Positions 4,811 to 54,893 of a DNA stretch of 64,000 nucleotides are shown here, in pieces (position 1 is the first letter of the stretch; each line of letters starts with the position of its first letter). The notes beneath the pieces are model-generated. The model did no database searches, was not told the origin of the DNA, and was given only the letters and a program-made list of their open reading frames with translations. Position numbers and translations under genes: made by a program. Source of the stretch: Alphaproteobacteria bacterium (GTDB taxonomy: Bacteria; Pseudomonadota; Alphaproteobacteria; JAAXGF01); contig CAUVXB020000002.1 of assembly GCA_963555825.3 (NCBI GenBank), positions 512,001 through 576,000 of the forward strand, written 5' to 3'.

Positions 4811-5575
4811 TCAGTTAGCAGTCGGGGTTTGACGCCTGCGGCTCTGGTTGAGCCTGTAGCTGTCACCGTTCATCTCGAGGATGTTGACGTGGTGGGTGAG
4901 GCGATCGAGGAGCGCGCCGGTGAGGCGCTCGGAGCCGAACACCTCGGTCCATTCGTCGAAGGGCAGATTGGTGGTGACCAGGGTCGAGCCCCGCTCGTAG
5001 CGTTGGCTGAACACCTCGAACAACAGCTCGGCGCCGGTCTTCGACAGCGGCACGAAGCCGAGTTCGTCGACGATCAGAAGCTTGTAGGTGGCGAGCTTCT
5101 TCTGGAACCTCAGCAGCTGCTTGTCATCGCGGGCCTCGATGAGTTCGTGGACCAGCGCGGCGGCGGTGATGAAGCCGACCGAGAGGCCCTTCTGGCAGGC
5201 CGCCAGGCCGAGACCGAGGGCGATGTGGGTCTTGCCGGTCCCACTGTTGCCGAGCGCGATGAGGTTCTCGCGGCGCTCGATGTACTCGCAGCGGGCCAGC
5301 TCCAGGACCAGCGCCTTGTTGAGCGAGGGGATGACCTTGAAGTCGAAGCTGTCGAGGCTCTTGACCACGGGGAAGCGCGCCGCCTTGATGCGCCGCTCGA
5401 CCATGCGGCGCTCGCGGTCGATCAGCTCGAGCTCGGCGAGTCTCAACAGGTAGCGGACGTGATCGACGCCTTCCGAGGCGCACTGCCGGGCGATCTTGTC
5501 GTACTCGCGCAGGAAGGTCGGCAGCTTCAGCGTCTTGAGGTGGTGGGCGAGCAGCACTTGCGGTGTGTCGGTCAT
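4811..5575 (-). CDS. istB: IS21 helper ATPase IstB
   Basis: GNSGTGKTH Walker A, IVDELG, LDRLTHH. Confidence 0.95.
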   Translation of the reverse strand: MTDTPQVLLAHHLKTLKLPTFLREYDKIARQCASEGVDHVRYLLRLAELELIDRERRMVERRIKAARFPVVKSLDSFDFKVIPSLNKALVLELARCEYIERRENLIALGNSGTGKTHIALGLGLAACQKGLSVGFITAAALVHELIEARDDKQLLRFQKKLATYKLLIVDELGFVPLSKTGAELLFEVFSQRYERGSTLVTTNLPFDEWTEVFGSERLTGALLDRLTHHVNILEMNGDSYRLNQSRRRQTPTAN

Positions 5576-6299
5576 GCGCCGAGCCCCGACAGCAGGCTCA
5601 TGTACGACTTGGCGGACGTCATCGCGACCCGGGCGCGCGGCAGATACGGATAGACGTCGAGGTTGAGCCTGGGCGGCCGCCGCTCGATGCGGCACAGTAC
5701 CAGGTGCTTCACCGCATCAAAGCCGATTGCGCCGAGCCGCAGGGCGTCGCCGACCGCACCCTCGACCTCCTCGAGCCGGAAGGTCTCCAGTAGACGGAGC
5801 ACCTGGACGTACTCGCGCTTGCCTGCCTTGCCCATACGAGCTTCGAGGAGCCGCCGCAGAGTGATGAAGGCCTCGGGCAGGTCCCAGCCCGCCAATGGCG
5901 CGGCCTGGTCGAGGGCGCCGATCTTCTGCTCGATCAAGGGCAGGTAATGCAGCGGGTCGAAGATCAGGTCCTCGCTGTCGTAGGACCGGCGGTGCCGGGC
6001 GATCACCTCGGCCCCGCAGCTGATCACCACCTCATCGACGTAGCCCCGGATGAGCACCTCACGGTGGCCGTAGGCCACGGGCACGGAATAGTCGTTGCTG
6101 CGGTAACGCACCAGCGACAGCGAACTCGCCCGTCCAGGGCGCTTATCGCAGGCATCATAGGGAGCAGGCGGCAATGGCAAGAGAACTTGACGATCCCGCT
6201 CGAGACGCTCGCCGATGGTCTCCTTATATGAGGCGTTTGCTGTCAAGGTGGATTTAATCTACGCCACATGATCGTCTCTTCCATTGGTTATGGCTTTGT

Positions 6300-6540
6300 A
6301 TCCAGGGCGGGTCTTGCGATGAGTTCCGTGTTTCGTGCGAGTGATCGCATCACCTTATATCCGGCAGCTCCGATCCGGCTTGCCACAATGCTGTATACAT
6401 GGACCATCACAGGACGGGGATGGGACTAATCTTGTGGACGGCACCTTCGCCAAGGAGACATGCAGTCACACATCCAACCTGCCAACAAGCGTTCCCATCG
6501 GGGAATGAAGCCCGTTAGAACGCTGAGCTGATCCGCAGTC
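6300..6540 (-). ncRNA. Putative bridge/seek RNA of IS110 element A (boundaries approximate)
   Basis: Contains segments matching both strands of the target (6431-6437, 6451-6459) and of the donor junction (6354-6360, 6388-6394). Confidence 0.8.
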
Positions 6541-11713: not shown

Positions 11714-11987
11714 CTAGCCCGGATTTCTCACCATAGACAGGCGCGTCATCGCGTCGGGCGGTCGCCGATCCGCCAGGAGAAGGACGCAGAGCGTGGCCTG
11801 GGCCACGGTCAAGGCCTTCGACGCCGCGGGCGGCCCGCCCGGCGCGACCCGAAGGGCGGCGGATCTCGGACGACAGGCCGCGTAAAAGCGCTTGCCCGAT
11901 GCGGCAGCATCGCGCCGCGCGCTTTTCCTAGCCTGTCGGCCGATATCCGCCGTGCCGCACCTGTCCTTGGCGAGAAAGCCGGGCTAG
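11714..11987 (+). repeat. ~275-bp structured MITE-like repeat, copy 1
   Basis: CTAG at both ends, long terminal IR, internal hairpins; close homologue inverted at 38880-39155. Confidence 0.85.
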
Positions 11988-12112
11988 GCAGCAAAGGCGG
12001 GAATGTCGACCAAGATCATTACCGCTAGTGATGCGGTGGACGGCTCCCACCCGCAGGCATCTAGGTGCCAAAATGGTGGTTTCGATGAACCACAGGGAAA
12101 TAGGAGCCGTCC

Positions 12113-13135
12113 ATGAACGAAGTTATCACGATCGGTGTTGATCTTGCGAAGAACGTATTTCAGGTGCATGGCGTTGACGCCGAGGGAACCGTGGTCGTCC
12201 GCCGTCAGTTGAGGCGGCGTCAGGTGCTGGCCTTCTTCGAGAAACAGCCGCCCTGCCTGGTTGGTATGGAGGCATGTGCGACCGCGCATTACTGGGCGCG
12301 GGAGATCGCGGCGCTTGGGCATGAGGTCAAGCTGATGCCGCCGCGCTATGTGAAGCCCTACGTGAAGCGGAACAAGAATGACGCTGCCGATGCGGAGGCT
12401 ATTTGCGAGGCCGTCACGCGCCCGACGATGCGCTTTGTCGCGGTGAAGAGCGTCGAGCAGCAGAGCGTTCTGATGCTGCACCGAACGCGCGAGCTTCTGG
12501 TCCGCCAGAGAACCATGCTGGTCAACGCTACGCGGGCGCACATGGCGGAGTTCGGGGTGGTGGCGCGAACCGGGTTGCCGCAGGTCAAGGAGCTGCTCGC
12601 GGTGATCAGCGATGAGGCGGATGAGCGCATTCCGCCCCTGGCGCGGACTTGCCTGGAAGGGCTGGCGCGGCAGTTGCTGTCGCTGGAGCGGGAGATCGTC
12701 GGCGCTGAGAGGCGTATCCACGCCTGGCACCGGACGAACGAAGAGAGCCTGCGTCTCGAAACCACACCCGGCATCGGACCGATCACGGCGAGCGCGCTGG
12801 CATCTTCGATTGCCAATCCGTCGATCTTCAAATCGGGCCGCTCAATGGCCGCTTGGATCGGGCTGGTGCCAAGACAGAACTCGACCGGTGGCAAGGAGCG
12901 CATGGGGCGGATCTCCAAGCAGGGCGATCAATACCTGCGCTGGCTGCTGGTCGCCGGCGCCATGACGGTCATCCGCCACGCCAAGCGACGCGGCACGACC
13001 GATCCATGGCTTGCCAACATCATCGCCGACAAGCCGACCAAGGTCGCGGCCGTGGCGCTGGCCAACAAGAACGCCCGCATTGCCTGGGCGCTTCTGAGAC
13101 ATGGCGGAACCTATCGCAGGCCCGCGACGGCCTAG
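12113..13135 (+). CDS. IS110-family recombinase/transposase
   Basis: GVDLAK, MEAC, KNDAADA, STGG..ISKQG, VALANK. Confidence 0.95.
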   Translation: MNEVITIGVDLAKNVFQVHGVDAEGTVVVRRQLRRRQVLAFFEKQPPCLVGMEACATAHYWAREIAALGHEVKLMPPRYVKPYVKRNKNDAADAEAICEAVTRPTMRFVAVKSVEQQSVLMLHRTRELLVRQRTMLVNATRAHMAEFGVVARTGLPQVKELLAVISDEADERIPPLARTCLEGLARQLLSLEREIVGAERRIHAWHRTNEESLRLETTPGIGPITASALASSIANPSIFKSGRSMAAWIGLVPRQNSTGGKERMGRISKQGDQYLRWLLVAGAMTVIRHAKRRGTTDPWLANIIADKPTKVAAVALANKNARIAWALLRHGGTYRRPATA

Positions 13136-13169
13136 GCCGACGAAAACAAGGCGTTCACGAGTTTGGCGG

Positions 13170-13350
13170 AGTGTAAGTGACGTAATGCAAAATCGGTCGA
13201 ACCGAGGATCGGGAAAACCCGCTATAGCCACGGCGCCTCGAGCGCGTGCTTATGACTGGGACCCGACCCCGCGGATCGCATTAGGGCCAGCGGCCATGTA
13301 CGCCGCACCAAAAGGCCGGACACATGGCAGCACCCGACCAGCTTGCATCA
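13170..13350 (+). ncRNA. Putative bridge/seek RNA of element B (approximate)
   Basis: Target guides 13223-13231 and 13248-13254; donor guides 13303-13310 and 13320-13327; scaffold shared with element C. Confidence 0.78.
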
Positions 13351-13434
13351 ACGTCACAAAATCTCTTGCCAACAGGGGGCCGTCCACACATGGCTATGTG
13401 TGGACGGCCCCGATTTGGCAAGGGTTGTTTTGAC

Positions 13435-13615
13435 GGTCATGCAAGTTGGTCGGGTGCGGCTATGTGTCCGGCCTGTTGATGCGGTGCTCTTGACCGCTGG
13501 CCCTAATGCGATCCGCGGGATCGGGTCCCAACTAAACCCACGAGCTCGAGGCTCCCTAGCCATGACGGGTTTCTCCGATCCCCGGTATTCGACCGGTCTT
13601 GCATTACCTCACGAT
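13435..13615 (-). ncRNA. Putative bridge/seek RNA of element C (approximate)
   Basis: Scaffold conserved with element B RNA, differences concentrated in guide loops (13533-13539, 13557-13564). Confidence 0.75.
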
Positions 13616-13635
13616 CACCCTGCCAAAGGGTTTAA

Positions 13636-14810
13636 TACCAGTGAGCCTATGAAATCACCTTCATGATCCATGGATAGGCGCAGAGGGTTCGCATACGATC
13701 CGGTTCTGCGATGAGGTCGATCCATGCTTGGCAACAGGCGTCGATGATGGCCTCGGTGTCGTCGAGGACGCGGAGCGATAGGAAGCGTTCGCGTAGGTAG
13801 AGCCAAACCCGCTCGACGGGGTTGAGTTCGGGACTGTAAGGCGGCAACAGCGCCAAGGTGACGTTGTCGGGGACGGTGAGGGCGCGCTCGTCGTGCCAAC
13901 CGGCGCCGTCGCACATCATGACGGCGTGCGCATCCTGGTCCAGGGTATCGGCGAAGTGTGCGAGAAACAGGTCCATGACCTTGGCGTTGACGCTCGGCAT
14001 CACCAGGGTGACGTCGTCGCCGGTGTCCGGGCGCACGGCGGAGAAGATGTAGGCCCACTGGTAGCCGATTTGACGCGTCCCGGGGGCACGCTCGCCCCTG
14101 CGCCACCACCGGTGACACACCCGGCCCTTGTTGCCGACGCGCGCTTCATCCTGAAACCACAGCTGTAGGCGCTTGTCGGGATGCGCCGCGGCGGTCGCCT
14201 TCAGGATGTCGCGAAGCCCCCTTTTTTGAAGCGCTCCTGCGCTTCGGCGTCCCTTCGCGGGTGGCTCGGGCGCGCCTTCTGGCGGGAAAATCCCATCCGC
14301 CGTAGAACCCGGGTCATGCTCGAGGGGTGGTAGGTCTTGGCGAAGCGCTCCTCCAGCCAGCGGCACAGATCGGCCCGGGTCCAGGCGCAAACCCCGTCGC
14401 GCTCAGGCTCCGGCCCGGCGATGATGACCGCCGCCAGCGCCGCTTCCTCGTCTGCCGTCAGCCGCCGCGGCGAGTAGCCCTTTGGACGGTCGTGAAGCCC
14501 CTCCAATCCCTTTGCATTGTAACGAACAACCGCGTCGCGAAGCGTTTGGCGATCCATCCCCGCAAGCCGCGCGGCATCAGCCCGGGGCATCTCCTCCAAA
14601 GCATTCGCGATCCCATAGGCCCGCGCCGCCGCTCGACCGTACGATTCCACGCGAGCCCAGCGCCGAAGCTCCAAAGGCGTCAAATCATCCCGTATCTTGA
14701 GTGCTGATCCCATGACATCCCCCACATCTGGTGGGAGACCATAGAATCACAATCCGCCATCATCCGCCATCAATGAATATCCCGAGAGTCAATTCAGGCG
14801 CTCACTGGTA
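13636..14810 (-). mobile_element. IS630-family element (orfA 14201-14713, orfB ending 13647, AAAAAAGGGGG frameshift)
   Basis: TA duplication, TIR TACCAGTGAGC, WFQDEARVG/DGAGWH/SPELNPVE; second copy at 31642-32816. Confidence 0.93.
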
Positions 14811-14823
14811 TCAGGCGTCTGTC

Positions 14824-15855
14824 TCAAGCGGCGGTGACTGCTGGCTGACGGTAGGTTCCACCGTTGGCGAGCAGCGCCCAGGCGGTTCGTGCGTTCTTGT
14901 TGGCCAGCGCCACGGCGGCGAGCTTGGTCGGTTTGCGCGCCATGAGATCGCCCAGCCAGGGGTTCTTCTCGAAGTTTGATCTTCGCCCGTGGCGTATCAC
15001 CGTCATGGCGCCGGCGACGAGCAGCCACCGGAGGTAGTGGTCACCCGCCTTGGAGATGCGGCCGAGCCGCTGCTTGCCGCCGGTCGAGGTCTGTCTGGGC
15101 ACCAGACCGATCCAAGCCGCCAGTTCACGCCCCGATCTGAACACCGAAGGGTCGGCGATCGAGGCCGCCAGCGCACTCGCCGTGAGCGGTCCGATGCCGG
15201 GAATGGTCGCCAGACGTTGGCTGACCTCGGTCGCTCGATGCCAGGCATGAATGCGCTGCTCGGTGGTGGTGATCTCACGCTCCAGCGATAACAACTGCCG
15301 CGCCAGTCCTTCCAGGCATGTCCGTGCCAGTGGCGGGATGCGTTCATCGCCCTCATCAGCGATGACCGCGAGGAGTTCCTTCACCTGCGGCAGCCCGACC
15401 CGGGCGACAACCCCGAACTCCGCCATGTGCGCGCGGATCGCATTGACCAGCATGGTCCGCTGCCGGACCAGGAGTTCGCGCGTCCGGTGGTCCATCAACA
15501 CGCTCTGCTGCGCGGCCGTCTTGACCGCCACGAAACGCATCGATGGCCGCGTTACCGCTTCGCAGATCGCTTCGGCATCCGCCGCGTCGTTCTTGTTGCG
15601 CTTGACGTAGGGCTTCACGTAAGCCGCCGGCATGATGCGCACCTCATGGCCAAGCGCCCCGAGTTCCCGCGCCCAATGGTGCGACGTCGCGCAGGCCTCG
15701 ATACCGACCAGACAAGCCGGCTGCTTGCTGAAGAACGGCACAACCTGGCGGCGCCTCAGTTGCCGGCGGATCACGGTCTCGCCTGAGACATCGACCCCGT
15801 GAACCTGGAAAACGTTCTTCGCAAGATCAAGTCCGATCGTGTTAACCTCGGTCAT
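14824..15855 (-). CDS. IS110-family recombinase/transposase of element C (cut off from its RBS by IS1595)
   Basis: GLDLAK, IEAC, KNDAADA; close paralogue of 12113-13135. Confidence 0.93.
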   Translation of the reverse strand: MTEVNTIGLDLAKNVFQVHGVDVSGETVIRRQLRRRQVVPFFSKQPACLVGIEACATSHHWARELGALGHEVRIMPAAYVKPYVKRNKNDAADAEAICEAVTRPSMRFVAVKTAAQQSVLMDHRTRELLVRQRTMLVNAIRAHMAEFGVVARVGLPQVKELLAVIADEGDERIPPLARTCLEGLARQLLSLEREITTTEQRIHAWHRATEVSQRLATIPGIGPLTASALAASIADPSVFRSGRELAAWIGLVPRQTSTGGKQRLGRISKAGDHYLRWLLVAGAMTVIRHGRRSNFEKNPWLGDLMARKPTKLAAVALANKNARTAWALLANGGTYRQPAVTAA

Positions 15856-15857
15856 AG

Positions 15858-16962
15858 CTTGCCTATCCGGTTAACGCCCATGACCGCTACATGTAGGGTG
15901 CCGCCACTCTCCCGAGTAAAGCTCGGCATAGGTTGGAGCAGAGGTGTCGCCCGCGATGCCGAGCAATGAGCGGAAGGCGTTGAACGGGTAGAACCGCCTG
16001 TTGAAGCGGAAGGTGAACTCGTTGAGGTAGGCTTGTAGGTGCTGGTGGCTAACGCCGTGGTGGATACCGATCAGCCACGTCTTCAGGTTGGCGAAAACCA
16101 GATGGATGATCGGCAGGTATTGCTCGGCAACCTCTGGATCACCACACTCGGCAACAGCGAAGTGCTCATAGCCGCGCTTACCGAGGCCAGCATAGCCGCT
16201 CCAATCGTCAGTAACGATCAGCGATCCCGGCGCGACGGTGCTCTCGACGAACCCACAGAGCGACTCGGCGCTACGGTCGAGCACGACGGCGAGCCGAACG
16301 CGTCCGGCATAGCGTCCGTCTTTCCGGTTGTCGAGCTTGGTGCCCGGCTTTCGATGACGCACCTCGATGGCACAGGAGACGAGAACCTTGTGGTGAACAC
16401 CACGGCCTTCCCCACGCGTTCGCCCGCCAACCCAGGTTTCGTCCACCTCAACATGGTTCTTGGGCTGTCCACCGATCCTGTCTTGGTTGGGCCGCACCAT
16501 GCCCGAGCGGAGCTTGTGGAGAATTTGAAAGGCCGTCTCGTAGCGCGAAAGACCAAGTTGCCGCTGAAACTGCACGGCGGACATGCCGGGCGTCTGACTG
16601 GCGACCAGATAAGCGGCCCAGAACCAGACGTTCAGCGGAGTGTGGCTACGCTCCATCACTGTTCCCACCGTCAGCCCGGTGTTCTGGCGGCACTTGCGGC
16701 AGCGCAGGACGCCAGGGCGGTTTTCAAAGTGGAACGGCTCTCCCGCCGTGCCGCAGTGCGGGCAGGCAAAGCCGTCTCCCCAGCGGGCTTTCTCCAGGTA
16801 GGCGGCGCAGGCCGCATCATCGGGGAAAAGTCGCTGGAACTCGGGTAGCGAATGCGGGAATGGGAGATCGGCGCGGTCGAGAACATCCATGGCGCGCTCC
16901 CCTATATCCGGTTTGCGCCCATTCTAGCCCTAGTGGGTGTGGGTGTAAACCGGATAGGCAAG
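15858..16962 (-). mobile_element. IS1595-family element
   Basis: TIR CTTGCCTATCCGGTT; 8-bp TSD GGTCATAG (15850-15857 / 16963-16970). Confidence 0.93.
15871..16890 (-). CDS. IS1595-family transposase
   Basis: CPHCG..CRKC Zn ribbon, VEVDET, VTDDWSGY, YLNEF.FRFNRR. Confidence 0.93.
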   Translation of the reverse strand: MDVLDRADLPFPHSLPEFQRLFPDDAACAAYLEKARWGDGFACPHCGTAGEPFHFENRPGVLRCRKCRQNTGLTVGTVMERSHTPLNVWFWAAYLVASQTPGMSAVQFQRQLGLSRYETAFQILHKLRSGMVRPNQDRIGGQPKNHVEVDETWVGGRTRGEGRGVHHKVLVSCAIEVRHRKPGTKLDNRKDGRYAGRVRLAVVLDRSAESLCGFVESTVAPGSLIVTDDWSGYAGLGKRGYEHFAVAECGDPEVAEQYLPIIHLVFANLKTWLIGIHHGVSHQHLQAYLNEFTFRFNRRFYPFNAFRSLLGIAGDTSAPTYAELYSGEWRHPTCSGHGR

Positions 16963-17020
16963 GGTCATAGGACGGCTCCTTTGTAAGTGATCAGCCAACA
17001 GCTACCACTTCTGGCACTTA

Positions 17021-18182
17021 TACCAACGGCACTAATTATTGACCTGAAATCGCCCAATCTCTCATTCCGATGGACATGATCGTCTCGGGCTGGTCGATTA
17101 GTTTGTTCCAGGCTTGGCAACCGGCCTCGATGATGGCGTCGTAATCTTCGAAGACGCGGTTAGAGAGCCAATTCTGGCGGAGGTATTGCCAGATGTTCTC
17201 GACCGGGTTCAGCTCGGGCGAGCGCGATGGCAGCAGGATGATGGTGAGGTTCTTGGGGACCTTGAGCTGGTCGGTGCTGTGCCACCCGGCGCGGTCCATC
17301 AGGACGACGCCATGGGCCTTGGCGGCGACGTTGCAGCTGATCTCGTCGAGATGCATCTGCATGGCGGCTGTGTTGGCGAAGGGGAGCATGAGAGCGGCAC
17401 CCTTGGCTCCCATGGGACAGATTGCGCCAAAGAGGTAGGCGTTCGTGTAGCGCTGATCGGCGGGCAGGCGTGGCCTTGTTCCCTTCTTCGCCCAAATGCG
17501 CACACGCCCGTTCTTCTGTCCCAGCCTGGCCTCGTCTTGGAACCAGATCTCGACCCGCTTGGTCTTGGGCAGACCGGCTAGGTGGGCAGCGAGCGTGCGG
17601 GGGAAGTTTTTTTGAACGCCTCGATCACCCGCTGGTCCTGCTTGGGGTGCTGCGGCCGGGCGCTGATGTGGGAGAAGGACAGCGCGACGAGAAGGTCGGA
17701 GATCGCCCGCTCGCTATAGATCACGCCAAAGCGTTCTTCGATCACCCGTTTCAGGCGCAACCCGCCGCCAGCGAACCACACCGTCAATCTCTGGATCGGG
17801 GCCCGTTTCGACGATCACCGACAGTTCGCCCATCTGCTCGTCGGTCAAGAGCCGGGGGCGGCCCGCACCGGGACGGTTCTTCAAGCCGTCTGCCCCTTCA
17901 TCGTTGAAGCGGTGCGCCCAGTCTCTCAGCGTCTGGCGATCCATGCCGCCGACCTTAGCGGCTTCCGCTCGGCTCATGCCGTCGTAAACCGCCGCCAAGG
18001 CCAAAAGCCGGCGAACTTGGCGGGGATCGCGACTGTGCTTGGCCAAACACCGGAGCTCAATGCTGTCGTAGTCGTCCCGAAGAGCAATGCATACTGACAT
18101 GGCGAATCTCCTTCGCCAGCCTTGAATCACATCCAGCCCAAAAAGGGAATCCCTTGCGAGTCAGAATTTTGCGCCGTTGGTA
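17021..18182 (-). mobile_element. IS630-family element, orfA carries an additional frameshift
   Basis: TA ends, TIR TACCAACGGC; DRAGWH, SPELNPVEN; orfA frame breaks near 17760. Confidence 0.88.
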
Positions 18183-18338
18183 TTAGATGCCGTGTGGGGC
18201 CGTCCACCCCATTATACCCGGACTCGATGGCCGCACCGGAACGATGACCGCTTTCGGACGAATAGCCGACATACGGCGCCGTTTCCTGCTTTCGAGCCCC
18301 GTCAAATTTCAAACTGAAGCACTACCGGCGCCGTCTCA

Positions 18339-31641: not shown

Positions 31642-32816
31642 TACCAGTGAGCCTATGAAATCACCTTCATGATCCATGGATAGGCGCAGAGGGTTCGCAT
31701 ACGATCCGGTTCTGCGATGAGGTCGATCCATGCTTGGCAACAGGCGTCGATGATGGCCTCGGTGTCGTCGAGGACGCGGAGCGATAGGAAGCGTTCGCGT
31801 AGGTAGAGCCAAACCCGCTCGACGGGGTTGAGTTCGGGACTGTAAGGCGGCAACAGCGCCAAGGTGACGTTGTCGGGGACGGTGAGGGCGCGCTCGTCGT
31901 GCCAACCGGCGCCGTCGCACATCATGACGGCGTGCGCATCCTGGTCCAGGGTATCGGCGAAGTGTGCGAGAAACAGGTCCATGACCTTGGCGTTGACGCT
32001 CGGCATCACCAGGGTGACGTCGTCGCCGGTGTCCGGGCGCACGGCGGAGAAGATGTAGGCCCACTGGTAGCCGATTTGACGCGTCCCGGGGGCACGCTCG
32101 CCCCTGCGCCACCACCGGTGACACACCCGGCCCTTGTTGCCGACGCGCGCTTCATCCTGAAACCACAGCTGTAGGCGCTTGTCGGGATGCGCCGCGGCGG
32201 TCGCCTTCAGGATGTCGCGAAGCCCCCTTTTTTGAAGCGCTCCTGCGCTTCGGCGTCCCTTCGCGGGTGGCTCGGGCGCGCCTTCTGGCGGGAAAATCCC
32301 ATCCGCCGTAGAACCCGGGTCATGCTCGAGGGGTGGTAGGTCTTGGCGAAGCGCTCCTCCAGCCAGCGGCACAGATCGGCCCGGGTCCAGGCGCAAACCC
32401 CGTCGCGCTCAGGCTCCGGCCCGGCGATGATGACCGCCGCCAGCGCCGCTTCCTCGTCTGCCGTCAGCCGCCGCGGCGAGTAGCCCTTTGGACGGTCGTG
32501 AAGCCCCTCCAATCCCTTTGCATTGTAACGAACAACCGCGTCGCGAAGCGTTTGGCGATCCATCCCCGCAAGCCGCGCGGCATCAGCCCGGGGCATCTCC
32601 TCCAAAGCATTCGCGATCCCATAGGCCCGCGCCGCCGCTCGACCGTACGATTCCACGCGAGCCCAGCGCCGAAGCTCCAAAGGCGTCAAATCATCCCGTA
32701 TCTTGAGTGCTGATCCCATGACATCCCCCACATCTGGTGGGAGACCATAGAATCACAATCCGCCATCATCCGCCATCAATGAATATCCCGAGAGTCAATT
32801 CAGGCGCTCACTGGTA
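31642..32816 (-). mobile_element. IS630-family element, copy of 13636-14810
   Basis: Identical ORF translations and TIRs, TA duplication. Confidence 0.93.
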
Positions 32817-53504: not shown

Positions 53505-54893
53505 ATGACGCGTGAGGCGGCGATCGCCGGCATCGGCGCGTATTTCGACGACGGCGGGTTCTTCGACGACCTGGCGCGCCGCGTCGCGATTCGCACCGAG
53601 AGCCAGGACCCGGCGCGGCGCGCCGAGCTTTACCGCTATCTGACCGACGAGATGACGCCGAGCCTCGCGGCGCTCGGCTTCGAATGCCGGGTTCATGAGA
53701 ACCCTGCCGCGCATGGCGGACCGTTCCTGGTCGCCCGCCGCCACGAAGGCGACGCGCTGCCGACGGTGATGAGCTACGGCCACGGCGACGTCGTGCTCGG
53801 CTACGACGAGCAATGGCGCGCCGGGCTGAACCCCTGGGTGCTGACCAAGGACGGCGCGCGCTGGTACGGCCGCGGCAGCGCCGACAACAAGGGCCAGCAC
53901 ACGATCAACATCGCCGCGCTTTCGCAGGTGCTGGCGGAACGAGGCTCGCTCGGCTTCAACGCCATCATGCTGATCGAGACCGGCGAGGAGGCCGGCTCGC
54001 CGGGCTTGCGCGAGTTCTGCGCCGCCAACGCGGCGCTGTTCACCGCCGACGTCTTCATCGCGTCCGACGGGCCCAGGCTCGCGCCCGACCGGCCGACCAT
54101 CTTCATGGGCTCGCGCGGCACCATGAACTTCGACCTCACGGTCGATCTGCGCGAGGGCGGCCACCATTCGGGCAATTGGGGCGGCTTGCTCGCCAACCCG
54201 GGTATCATCCTGGCCCATGCGATCGCCAGCCTGACCACGGCGAGCGGTGAAATCCTGGTGCCCGAATGGCGCCCGCCGCCGATCCCGGGCTCGGTGCGCG
54301 ACGCGATCGCCGGGCTCGAGATCGACGGCGGCGAGAACGCGCCGGCGATCGACCCCGATTGGGGCGAACCGGGGCTGAGCGCGGCCGAGAAGGTGTTCGC
54401 CTGGAACACCTTCGAGGTGCTCGCCTTCACGACCGGCAATCCAGAACACCCGGTCAACGCCGTGCCGCCGCGCGCCAGCGCGACCTGTCACATGCGCTAT
54501 GTCGTGCCGAGCCTGGCCGAGGATTTCGTGCCGGCGCTGCGCCGCCACCTCGACGAACGGGGTTTCGCCATGGTCGAGATCACGCCCCAAGAGGACAACA
54601 TGGCGGCGACCCGCCTCGACCCCGACCACCCCTGGGCGCGCTGGGCGGTCGCCTCGATCGAGGCGAGTACGGGCAAAGCCTGCGCGGTGCTGCCCAACCT
54701 GGGCGGCTCGCTGCCCAACGACGTGTTTTCCGAGCTGCTCGGCCTGCCGACCATCTGGGTGCCGCATTCCTACGCGTCGTGCTCGCAGCACGCGCCAAAC
54801 GAACACATCCTGGATCACGTCTCGCGCGAGGCGCTCGGGATCATGACCGGCCTGTTCTGGGACCTGGGCGCCCCCGGCACGCCGGGACGCTGA
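53505..54893 (+). CDS. M20-family metallopeptidase
   Basis: YGHGDVV, GRGSADNKGQH, GEE, QHAPNEH. Confidence 0.9.
   Translation: MTREAAIAGIGAYFDDGGFFDDLARRVAIRTESQDPARRAELYRYLTDEMTPSLAALGFECRVHENPAAHGGPFLVARRHEGDALPTVMSYGHGDVVLGYDEQWRAGLNPWVLTKDGARWYGRGSADNKGQHTINIAALSQVLAERGSLGFNAIMLIETGEEAGSPGLREFCAANAALFTADVFIASDGPRLAPDRPTIFMGSRGTMNFDLTVDLREGGHHSGNWGGLLANPGIILAHAIASLTTASGEILVPEWRPPPIPGSVRDAIAGLEIDGGENAPAIDPDWGEPGLSAAEKVFAWNTFEVLAFTTGNPEHPVNAVPPRASATCHMRYVVPSLAEDFVPALRRHLDERGFAMVEITPQEDNMAATRLDPDHPWARWAVASIEASTGKACAVLPNLGGSLPNDVFSELLGLPTIWVPHSYASCSQHAPNEHILDHVSREALGIMTGLFWDLGAPGTPGR

Follow-up and report, generated by a model that had tools for sequence, protein, structure and literature searches.

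Members of the IS1111 family of insertion sequences (ISs) encode transposases of 330-350 amino acids (aa) with the motif GL-P----S(t)G in the C-terminal domain. They also have subterminal inverted repeats of 7-17 base pairs (bp), a short left end and a long non-coding region 3′ of the transposase gene, and they insert without duplicating the target beyond the shared core. In their seekRNA, a match to the top strand is placed 5′ of a match to the bottom strand, with an overlap at the insertion point; the transposase is bound by this RNA, which is needed for both excision and insertion (PMC11187229). In the IS621 bridge RNA, the left guide pairs with the bottom strand and the right guide with the top strand, and each of the four pairings includes the core (PMC11208160). 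ISEc11 and ISXne4 form a natural re-direction pair, with transposases 72% identical and unrelated targets (PMC11187229). RNA-guided IS1111 targeting, the position of the RNA, the reversed guide order and natural re-direction were already published in 2024 (PMC11187229; PMC11208160). Here we describe two IS1111-type elements, B and C, in a stretch of 64,000 nucleotides (nt) from an Alphaproteobacteria bacterium (contig CAUVXB020000002.1, positions 512,001 to 576,000), called the window below; positions are those of the window. The elements lie tail to tail, 2 bp apart. We consider it probable that both siblings entered one site directed by their own RNAs, with B more likely the first.

The anatomy of the two elements was observed directly, and the coordinates are collected in Table 1. 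On sequence grounds, B and C are IS1111-type siblings, diverged members of one clade. Each would encode a DEDD transposase (340 aa in B and 343 aa in C, both with PF01548 and PF02371 above the cut-offs) and, 3′ of the gene, a bridge/seekRNA of ~150 nt. The transposases are 79% identical and share the motif GLVPRQ(T/N)STG in the alignment, which reads GLVPRQNSTG in B, and the 3′ regions of the elements are ~80% identical. In B, 255 nt of non-coding DNA lie 3′ of the transposase gene, compared with 82 nt in the left end. The subterminal repeat GTGGACGGC is found in all four ends, at 12036 (+), 13379 (-), 13400 (+) and 18199 (-), and the left-end and right-end repeats of B match by eye at 12 of 14 positions. 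B and C resemble ISEc11, ISPa11 and ISKpn4 (PMC11187229) in the DEDD transposase of ~340 aa, the subterminal inverted repeats, the 7-nt left-end extension, the long non-coding region 3′ of the transposase gene, the apparent lack of target duplication (here by reconstruction), and the top-strand match placed 5′ of the bottom-strand match in the RNA, overlapping at the insertion point. On the other hand, their guides and target are different and are known here from sequence alone, with predicted RNA ends, and one site is shared by two diverged members in opposite orientation, separated by 2 bp.

B (+) and C (-) meet at ACACA-TG-GC-TA-TGTGT (13386-13401), where ACACA (13386-13390) is followed by TG (13391-92), GC (13393-94), TA (13395-96) and TGTGT (13397-13401). 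This junction had been described in an earlier note, made from the letters of the DNA, and all of its coordinates were verified. The empty site reconstructed in that note, GCTAG-TG-GC-TA-TACCC, was also found correct, given that the left end of C lies at 18213-14, beyond three nested ISs; the flank beyond this end reads TACCCGG from 18215. The reconstructed flanks join without target duplication, a result that depends on the reconstruction and not on a real uninterrupted site. No long open reading frame (ORF) or tRNA extends across the reconstructed site. To the left of the insertion site, at a distance of ~80 nt, there is an imperfect palindrome of 98 nt (11857-11952) that is 78% self-complementary.

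Relatives of the two elements were collected by a scan of genome contigs, with the C transposase as the first sequence of the query alignment and the reference for identity figures. The set comprises at least 80 loci with transposases 52-76% identical to C (the closest among the matches listed being 76% identical), and nearly all of them have a homologous 3′ region. An RNA alignment of 63 sequences, B and C included, was prepared. RNAalifold gave an outer stem, a short CCC/GGG stem, an internal loop, an apical 4-bp hairpin and a second hairpin downstream, with compensatory change in 19 of the 20 predicted pairs. A GGCC/GGCC stem was added to this layout before pairs were counted on the same alignment. 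Pairing was found in 96.3% of cells versus 30-39% with the partners slid by 1-3 columns, both sides had changed in 21 of 24 pairs, and the observed values were reached in 0 of 500 shuffles. A structured RNA in the non-coding end is backed by this covariation; the closing stem of the donor module is without covariation support. A nhmmer profile of the RNA alignment had exactly two matches in the window, the RNAs of B and C.

The view that the two RNAs share a scaffold held up when they were compared with each other. Of 177 aligned columns, 34 differ. The 16 target-guide nucleotides account for 8 of these differences, a rate of one in two, against about 16% of the remaining RNA columns. Two compensatory pairs distinguish B from C themselves (13234/13244 and 13294/13302). 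In a single-sequence fold of B (13203-13272), the two target guides pair together; such pairing is expected for a quasi-palindromic target and might mask the guides in the free RNA. One relative (L012:3608-3792) has a hairpin-like insert of ~27 nt after the second RNA hairpin, which is absent from the other 62 sequences.

The positions of the guides could be read from the internal loop. Loop 1, the 5′ strand, is antiparallel-complementary to the core and right flank over ~8 nt. Loop 2, the 3′ strand, repeats exactly 7 nt, namely 5 nt of the left flank followed by the core, and, as it carries top-strand sequence, would pair with the bottom strand. The loop-1 register was fixed on positions 1-6 only, leaving later positions unbiased, and was scored in the 50 loci with at least 5/6 matches there. 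The Watson-Crick match was 0.76 at position 7, 0.64 at position 8, 0.46 at position 9, 0.28 at position 10 and 0.17 at position 11. Loop 2, with position frequencies taken from 47 loci, showed a sharp edge, the match being 0.81-0.98 at positions 1-7 and 0.13-0.21 at positions 8-10. Non-cognate guide/flank pairings were used as the control for both loops. The cognate mean for loop 1 was 6.49/8 (n=67; 37/67 at 7 or more) versus 4.42 for non-cognate pairings (n=4400; 2.7% at 7 or more), and the cognate mean for loop 2 was 5.87/7 (n=45) versus 2.94 (n=1956). These results show, by covariation with the flanks across the family, that the loops named in the earlier note are target guides. The expected covariation is also seen in L001, the closest relative of B among the loci listed (right end 87% identical): its guide CGUAGCCA goes with the flank TGGCTAC, as the B guide UAUAGCCA goes with TGGCTAT.

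At this locus, B carries the guides UAUAGCCAC in loop 1 and GCUUAUG in loop 2, and C carries CAUGGCUA and GGGUUUA. Loop 1 of B matches 9 nt of the empty site, namely 8/8 from the core plus one base left of the core, and loop 1 of C matches 6/8 on the empty site and 8/8 where B is in place. Loop 2 matches at 5/7 in B and at 6/7 in C. All of these counts agree with those made earlier. The sequence CATGGCTA occurs at 13389-13396 (+), in the junction, and at 13557-13564 (-), in the C guide; these are two of four exact matches in the window, with 0.78 expected. Chance adjacency, with the RNAs playing no role, would be in keeping with a window crowded with IS elements (IS21, IS630, IS1595, IS3-like and IS110-family domains were found). 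It would, however, leave the combined matches (8/8 and 5/7 for B, 8/8 and 6/7 for C) to accident, in the very loops whose covariation with the flanks is seen across dozens of relatives and for which 7/8 or more is reached in just 2.7% of non-cognate pairs, and we regard it as extremely improbable.

By analogy with ISEc11 and IS621, the mechanism that we infer is as follows. B and C would each have entered GCTAG-TG-GC-TA-TACCC directed by their own RNAs, B using the core TG on the + strand and C the core TA on the - strand, and for this reason their right ends would face each other 2 bp apart. After the entry of B, the loop-1 guide of C would have paired across GC, the core TG of B and the two terminal bases of B. 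Later, C was struck by three unrelated IS elements, which separated its transposase gene from the ribosome-binding site and from the RNA.

The order of arrival was inferred from the loop-1 guides, since the loop-2 scores are independent of order. With B first, both guides match at 8/8; C gains its full match because the terminal CA of B replaces AG. With C first, C matches at 6/8, and B at 7/8 plus a U:G wobble. From the family frequencies at positions 7-8, a rough likelihood ratio for B first of ~50 was obtained from the C guide and of ~5 from the B guide. This is our own arithmetic, in which positions were assumed independent and an irrelevant site was treated as random. B was probably inserted before C. 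The earlier note had proposed that B came first and that C then used the new junction. The first part is favored by the guides, which fit this order better; the use of the junction depends on 2 nt at one locus.

Several observations weigh against the reading that both siblings were directed to this site by their RNAs with B first, and they are given here together with the alternatives that some of them favor. One alternative is the reverse order, in which C arrived first, tolerating two distal loop-1 mismatches, and B arrived later, the 8/8 match of C to the B end being coincidental. Each of the three later IS insertions struck C, and B has none, suggesting a longer residence of C; the probability of this distribution is 1/8 if the elements were equally exposed, and less if B is older. 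Among the relatives, a mismatch occurs at guide position 7 in 24% and at position 8 in 36%, and the B guide still pairs at 7/8 plus the wobble on the C-filled site. The B guide barely separates the two orders, position 8 being U:A on the empty site and U:G on the C-filled site. Yet the reverse order requires both mismatches in C (~0.09) plus a 1-in-16 chance match to the terminal CA of B, and it leaves a wobble at B position 8 where the empty site gives a Watson-Crick pair. The rough combined ratio is ~250 to 1 against it, before the argument from the nested ISs, which is worth at most 8. The frequencies behind these ratios were taken from relatives whose transposases are only 52-76% identical. 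We judge it unlikely that C was the first to arrive.

A second alternative concerns the way in which C recognizes the site and fits either order of arrival at this locus. The C lineage may read the bottom strand of a quasi-palindromic repeat that the B clade also targets, with the crossover shifted by 4 bp (TA for TG). Any repeat encountered by both lineages could then give rise to a tail-to-tail pair, without an evolved dependence of C on the B end. The target of locus L003 is a palindrome, GTCCGCTTTTG|GCTAAAAGCGGAC, so that C may not need B, and the targets of L001 and of the window resemble it (CCGCT..TG|GCTA....CGGAC). On the bottom strand the equivalent core is TA followed by GCCA, as the C guides read. 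The ideal target of B (GCTTATG+GCTATA) would give loop 1 of C 7/8 without B, and the loop-2 guides of B and C share 3/7 bases. On the other hand, the empty site at this locus gives C just 6/8, and the repeat family was inferred from three sites. An empty site with the ideal sequence of C was not found; the best match in the window has 1 mismatch in 13 and is unoccupied (54560-54572), and the window has no occupied or clearly cognate site that matches the ideal targets of C and B. Reading of the same site family from the opposite strand is a possibility to be taken seriously, though a somewhat doubtful one. If it is true, C copies should lie within uninterrupted repeats, ..ATGGCTAAACCC-like.

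A further possibility is that the C lineage has been programmed to home onto the right junction made by B-lineage insertions, with the sibling serving as a landing pad or 'safe harbour'. The B-clade insertions seen (B, L001 and L003) all end in ...CACACA-TG-GCTA and supply 8/8 bases of loop 1 of C. Retargeting would then have accompanied the switch of the core from TG to TA through single transitions in each guide, with L001 and L028 as mixed intermediates, and the switch would also have turned the inferred -10 box of the circle junction, CATGAT, into CATAAT. In that case most C copies should lie 2 bp from a B-type right end, ...CACACATG-GC-TA. The dependence of C on the B junction comes down to 2 nt at a single locus, which weakens this proposal as well as the order given above, and we hold such homing to be rather improbable. 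C-like transposases 89-98% identical to C form 35 protein clusters (P0001-P0035), many of them on contigs of 1.2-2.5 kb.

The remaining points against the RNA-directed insertion of both siblings with B first concern the RNA and the number of loci. The single-sequence folds of B and C were not significant against shuffled sequences (z = -1.85, -1.28, -0.34 and -0.13), so that the RNA structure is carried entirely by covariation, and Rfam 15 at gathering thresholds gave 0 matches over the whole window. The loop-2 match of B is just 5/7; by our count, 9 of the listed relatives are at 5/7 or lower. Neither blastn of both elements against the window nor the at least 80 relative loci listed (best identity 76%) gave a second copy of B or C. 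In the plasmid collection, megablast with B gave no further copy and just two weak partial matches, and tblastn with the C transposase gave no further copy, the best match being 63%. A search of plasmids with the left and right flanks gave no uninterrupted target, so that the empty site is a reconstruction.

The second RNA module would carry two segments matching the element itself, one matching its own right end plus core and one matching the core plus left end. The same-sense donor segment lies 3′ of the second hairpin. In 77 of 80 rows it repeats the five terminal bases of the right end, in five variants (ACACA, ATACA, ACAGA, ACATA and AGACA); the three misfit rows are truncated or misaligned. 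With the core that follows, it reads ACACAUG in B and ACACAUA in C. The antisense donor segment, CGCAUUA, is the same in B and C and complementary to the core together with the first bases of the left end; across the family its match is partial (0.43-1.0 per position). Its UA pairs perfectly with the TA of C and with a U:G wobble with the TG of B. The cores TG in B and TA in C are confirmed; four of four guide segments in C read TA, and three in B read TG with one wobble. The earlier note had also pointed to these cores as non-CT. They are indeed TG and TA; this is nothing special, however, as TG on both sides is the commonest state (32 of 75 rows). Just TA is unusual, occurring on both sides once among the 75 rows listed, in C.

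Mixed states of the core were also seen. L001 has UA at the loop-2 core position although its core is TG, and L028 has ACACAUA with a TG core; the second core base therefore looks fluid. In L020, L024, L006, L011 and others, the first core base differs between left and right (e.g. TG/GG), and the RNA agrees with the left. Such inequality may be the footprint of mismatched donor and target cores. By direct reading, joined right and left ends would give TTGCCA, a 17-nt spacer and CA-core-AT, which is CATGAT in B and CATAAT in C. Compared with the textbook -35 and -10 consensus hexamers, TTGCCA would be the -35 box of a putative circle-junction promoter, with CATGAT as the inferred -10 box in B and CATAAT in C. 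The arrangement resembles the promoter that ISEc11 forms at its circle junction (PMC11187229).

B and C are similar to IS621 (PMC11208160) in having a two-module RNA for target and donor, bottom-strand left and top-strand right pairing in each internal loop, and a core included in every pairing. Unlike in IS621, the RNA is encoded in the right end with the order of target guides reversed (a mirror image), the guides are 7 and ~8 nt rather than 9 and 4, and the core is TG or TA rather than CT. Like ISEc11 and ISXne4, B and C have conserved stems and replaced target-matching stretches, with 79% transposase identity versus 72%. The proposal that they are a natural reprogramming pair stands insofar as the scaffold is shared and the guides differ; it is not new, because ISEc11/ISXne4 is a precedent (PMC11187229). 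In contrast to that pair, B and C read overlapping bases of one 16-bp site from opposite strands, and C has a core dinucleotide of its own, on which its four guide segments agree. An IS1111-type element is reportedly known from another study to have its preferred target in the end of another mobile element. By comparison, the C guide reads 2 nt of its neighbor plus the neighbor's core, and the neighbor is a sibling.

The mechanism is an ordinary one for the IS1111 family, and what is known of it is unchanged by this locus. What is new is that two siblings share one site on opposite strands, with 2 bp between them, that the core switch is coherent across the guide segments, and that one guide reads across the end of the neighbor. 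A literature text search gave no paper combining IS1111 with 'tail-to-tail', and the bridge RNA/IS110 papers mentioning junction and nested were, judged by title and abstract, unrelated to this configuration. If our reading holds, the locus is a natural record of the drift of bridge/seekRNA specificity between close relatives. It would then bear on the evolution of new targets where coordinated change of several RNA segments is required, and on whether RNA-guided IS elements can target each other's junctions. Moreover, the 63-sequence alignment provides a covariance-supported model, with guide lengths of 7 and ~8 nt, for an IS1111 clade that is undetected by Rfam 15.

Table 1. Features of elements B and C and of the insertions within C (positions in the window; RNA modules and guides are predicted).
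Feature	Position	Strand	Remarks
Element B	12029-13392	+	IS1111-type
B left core TG	12029-12030	+	left flank GCTAG 12024-12028; core+ATGNNGTGGAYGG left-end pattern common to relatives
B left end, 82 nt	12031-12112	+	subterminal inverted repeat GTGGACGGC 12036-12044
B transposase, 340 aa	12113-13135	+	ORF intact; Pfam DEDD_Tnp_IS110 (1.7e-16), Transposase_20 (7.9e-26)
B target-binding module	13206-13271	+	outer stem, CCC/GGG stem, loop-1 guide 13223-13231, apical hairpin 13233-13245, loop-2 guide 13248-13254
B donor-binding module	13272-13335	+	donor guides CGCAUUA (antisense) 13277-13283 and ACACAUG (same-sense) 13320-13326
B donor-module stems	13285-88 with 13314-17; 13290-13306	+	GGCC/GGCC; hairpin
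B right end	13336-13390	+	TTGCCA, subterminal repeat 13379-13387, terminal ACA
Right cores of B (TG) and C (TA) with the 2-bp spacer GC between them	13391-13396	.	
Element C	13395-18214	-	IS1111-type, interrupted by three later IS insertions
C right end with bridge/seekRNA	13397-13635	-	RNA 13441-13613; loop-1 guide 13564-13557, loop-2 guide 13539-13533
C donor guides	13510-13504 and 13467-13461	-	
Nested IS630-type #1	13638-14808	-	between C RNA region and transposase stop; TA duplicated 13636-37, 14809-10
C transposase, 343 aa	14824-15855	-	ORF intact
Nested IS1595-type	15858-16962	-	on C start codon; 8-bp duplication GGTCATAG 15850-57, 16963-70
Nested IS630-type #2	17023-18180	-	splits C left end; TA at 17021-22, 18181-82
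Terminal piece of C left end	18183-18214	-	subterminal repeat 18199-18207, left core TA 18213-14

A left end of C at 17020 was considered and was ruled out by the GTGGACGGC repeat at 18199-18207 together with the alignment to the left end of B. The duplication GGTCATAG made by the IS1595-type element contains the start codon of C; one copy of the ATG remains with the ORF, and the ribosome-binding site remains with the detached left-end piece. The first IS630-type element has a second copy at 31644-32814, 99.8% identical. Both IS630 copies have TA on either side and similar bases beyond it, GGGT(T/A)TAA|TA ... TA|T(C/A)AGGC, which suggests a target preference wider than TA or unrecognized terminal bases. 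The right ends of B and C (13136-13640) form an inverted repeat of ~240 nt with ~80% identity across the 2-bp spacer, and read-through from either RNA gene in this region would yield a long foldback transcript.

Among the relatives, the right end of L025 (near 1680-1700) has a 10-nt internal duplication, with CGTCCACACA present twice, and the guide fits the flank after the second copy. In L043 (~3790 and ~4820) and L080 (~2120 and ~3190), related elements form inverted pairs at a distance of ~1 kb and share the right flank TGTTGCA(G/C)AA. The pattern resembles insertion into both inverted ends of a different small mobile element, and IS4321/IS5075 are reported to target the inverted ends of another mobile element. 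A third IS110-family transposase gene of the window (377 aa, PF01548 and PF02371; 6541-7674, -) adjoins IstB and IstA-like fragments of an IS21-type element (4811-6246). It is of a different type, without DNA similarity to B or C and without a match to the RNA profile in its flanks. The repeat GTGGACGGC is also present near this gene, at 6434-6442.

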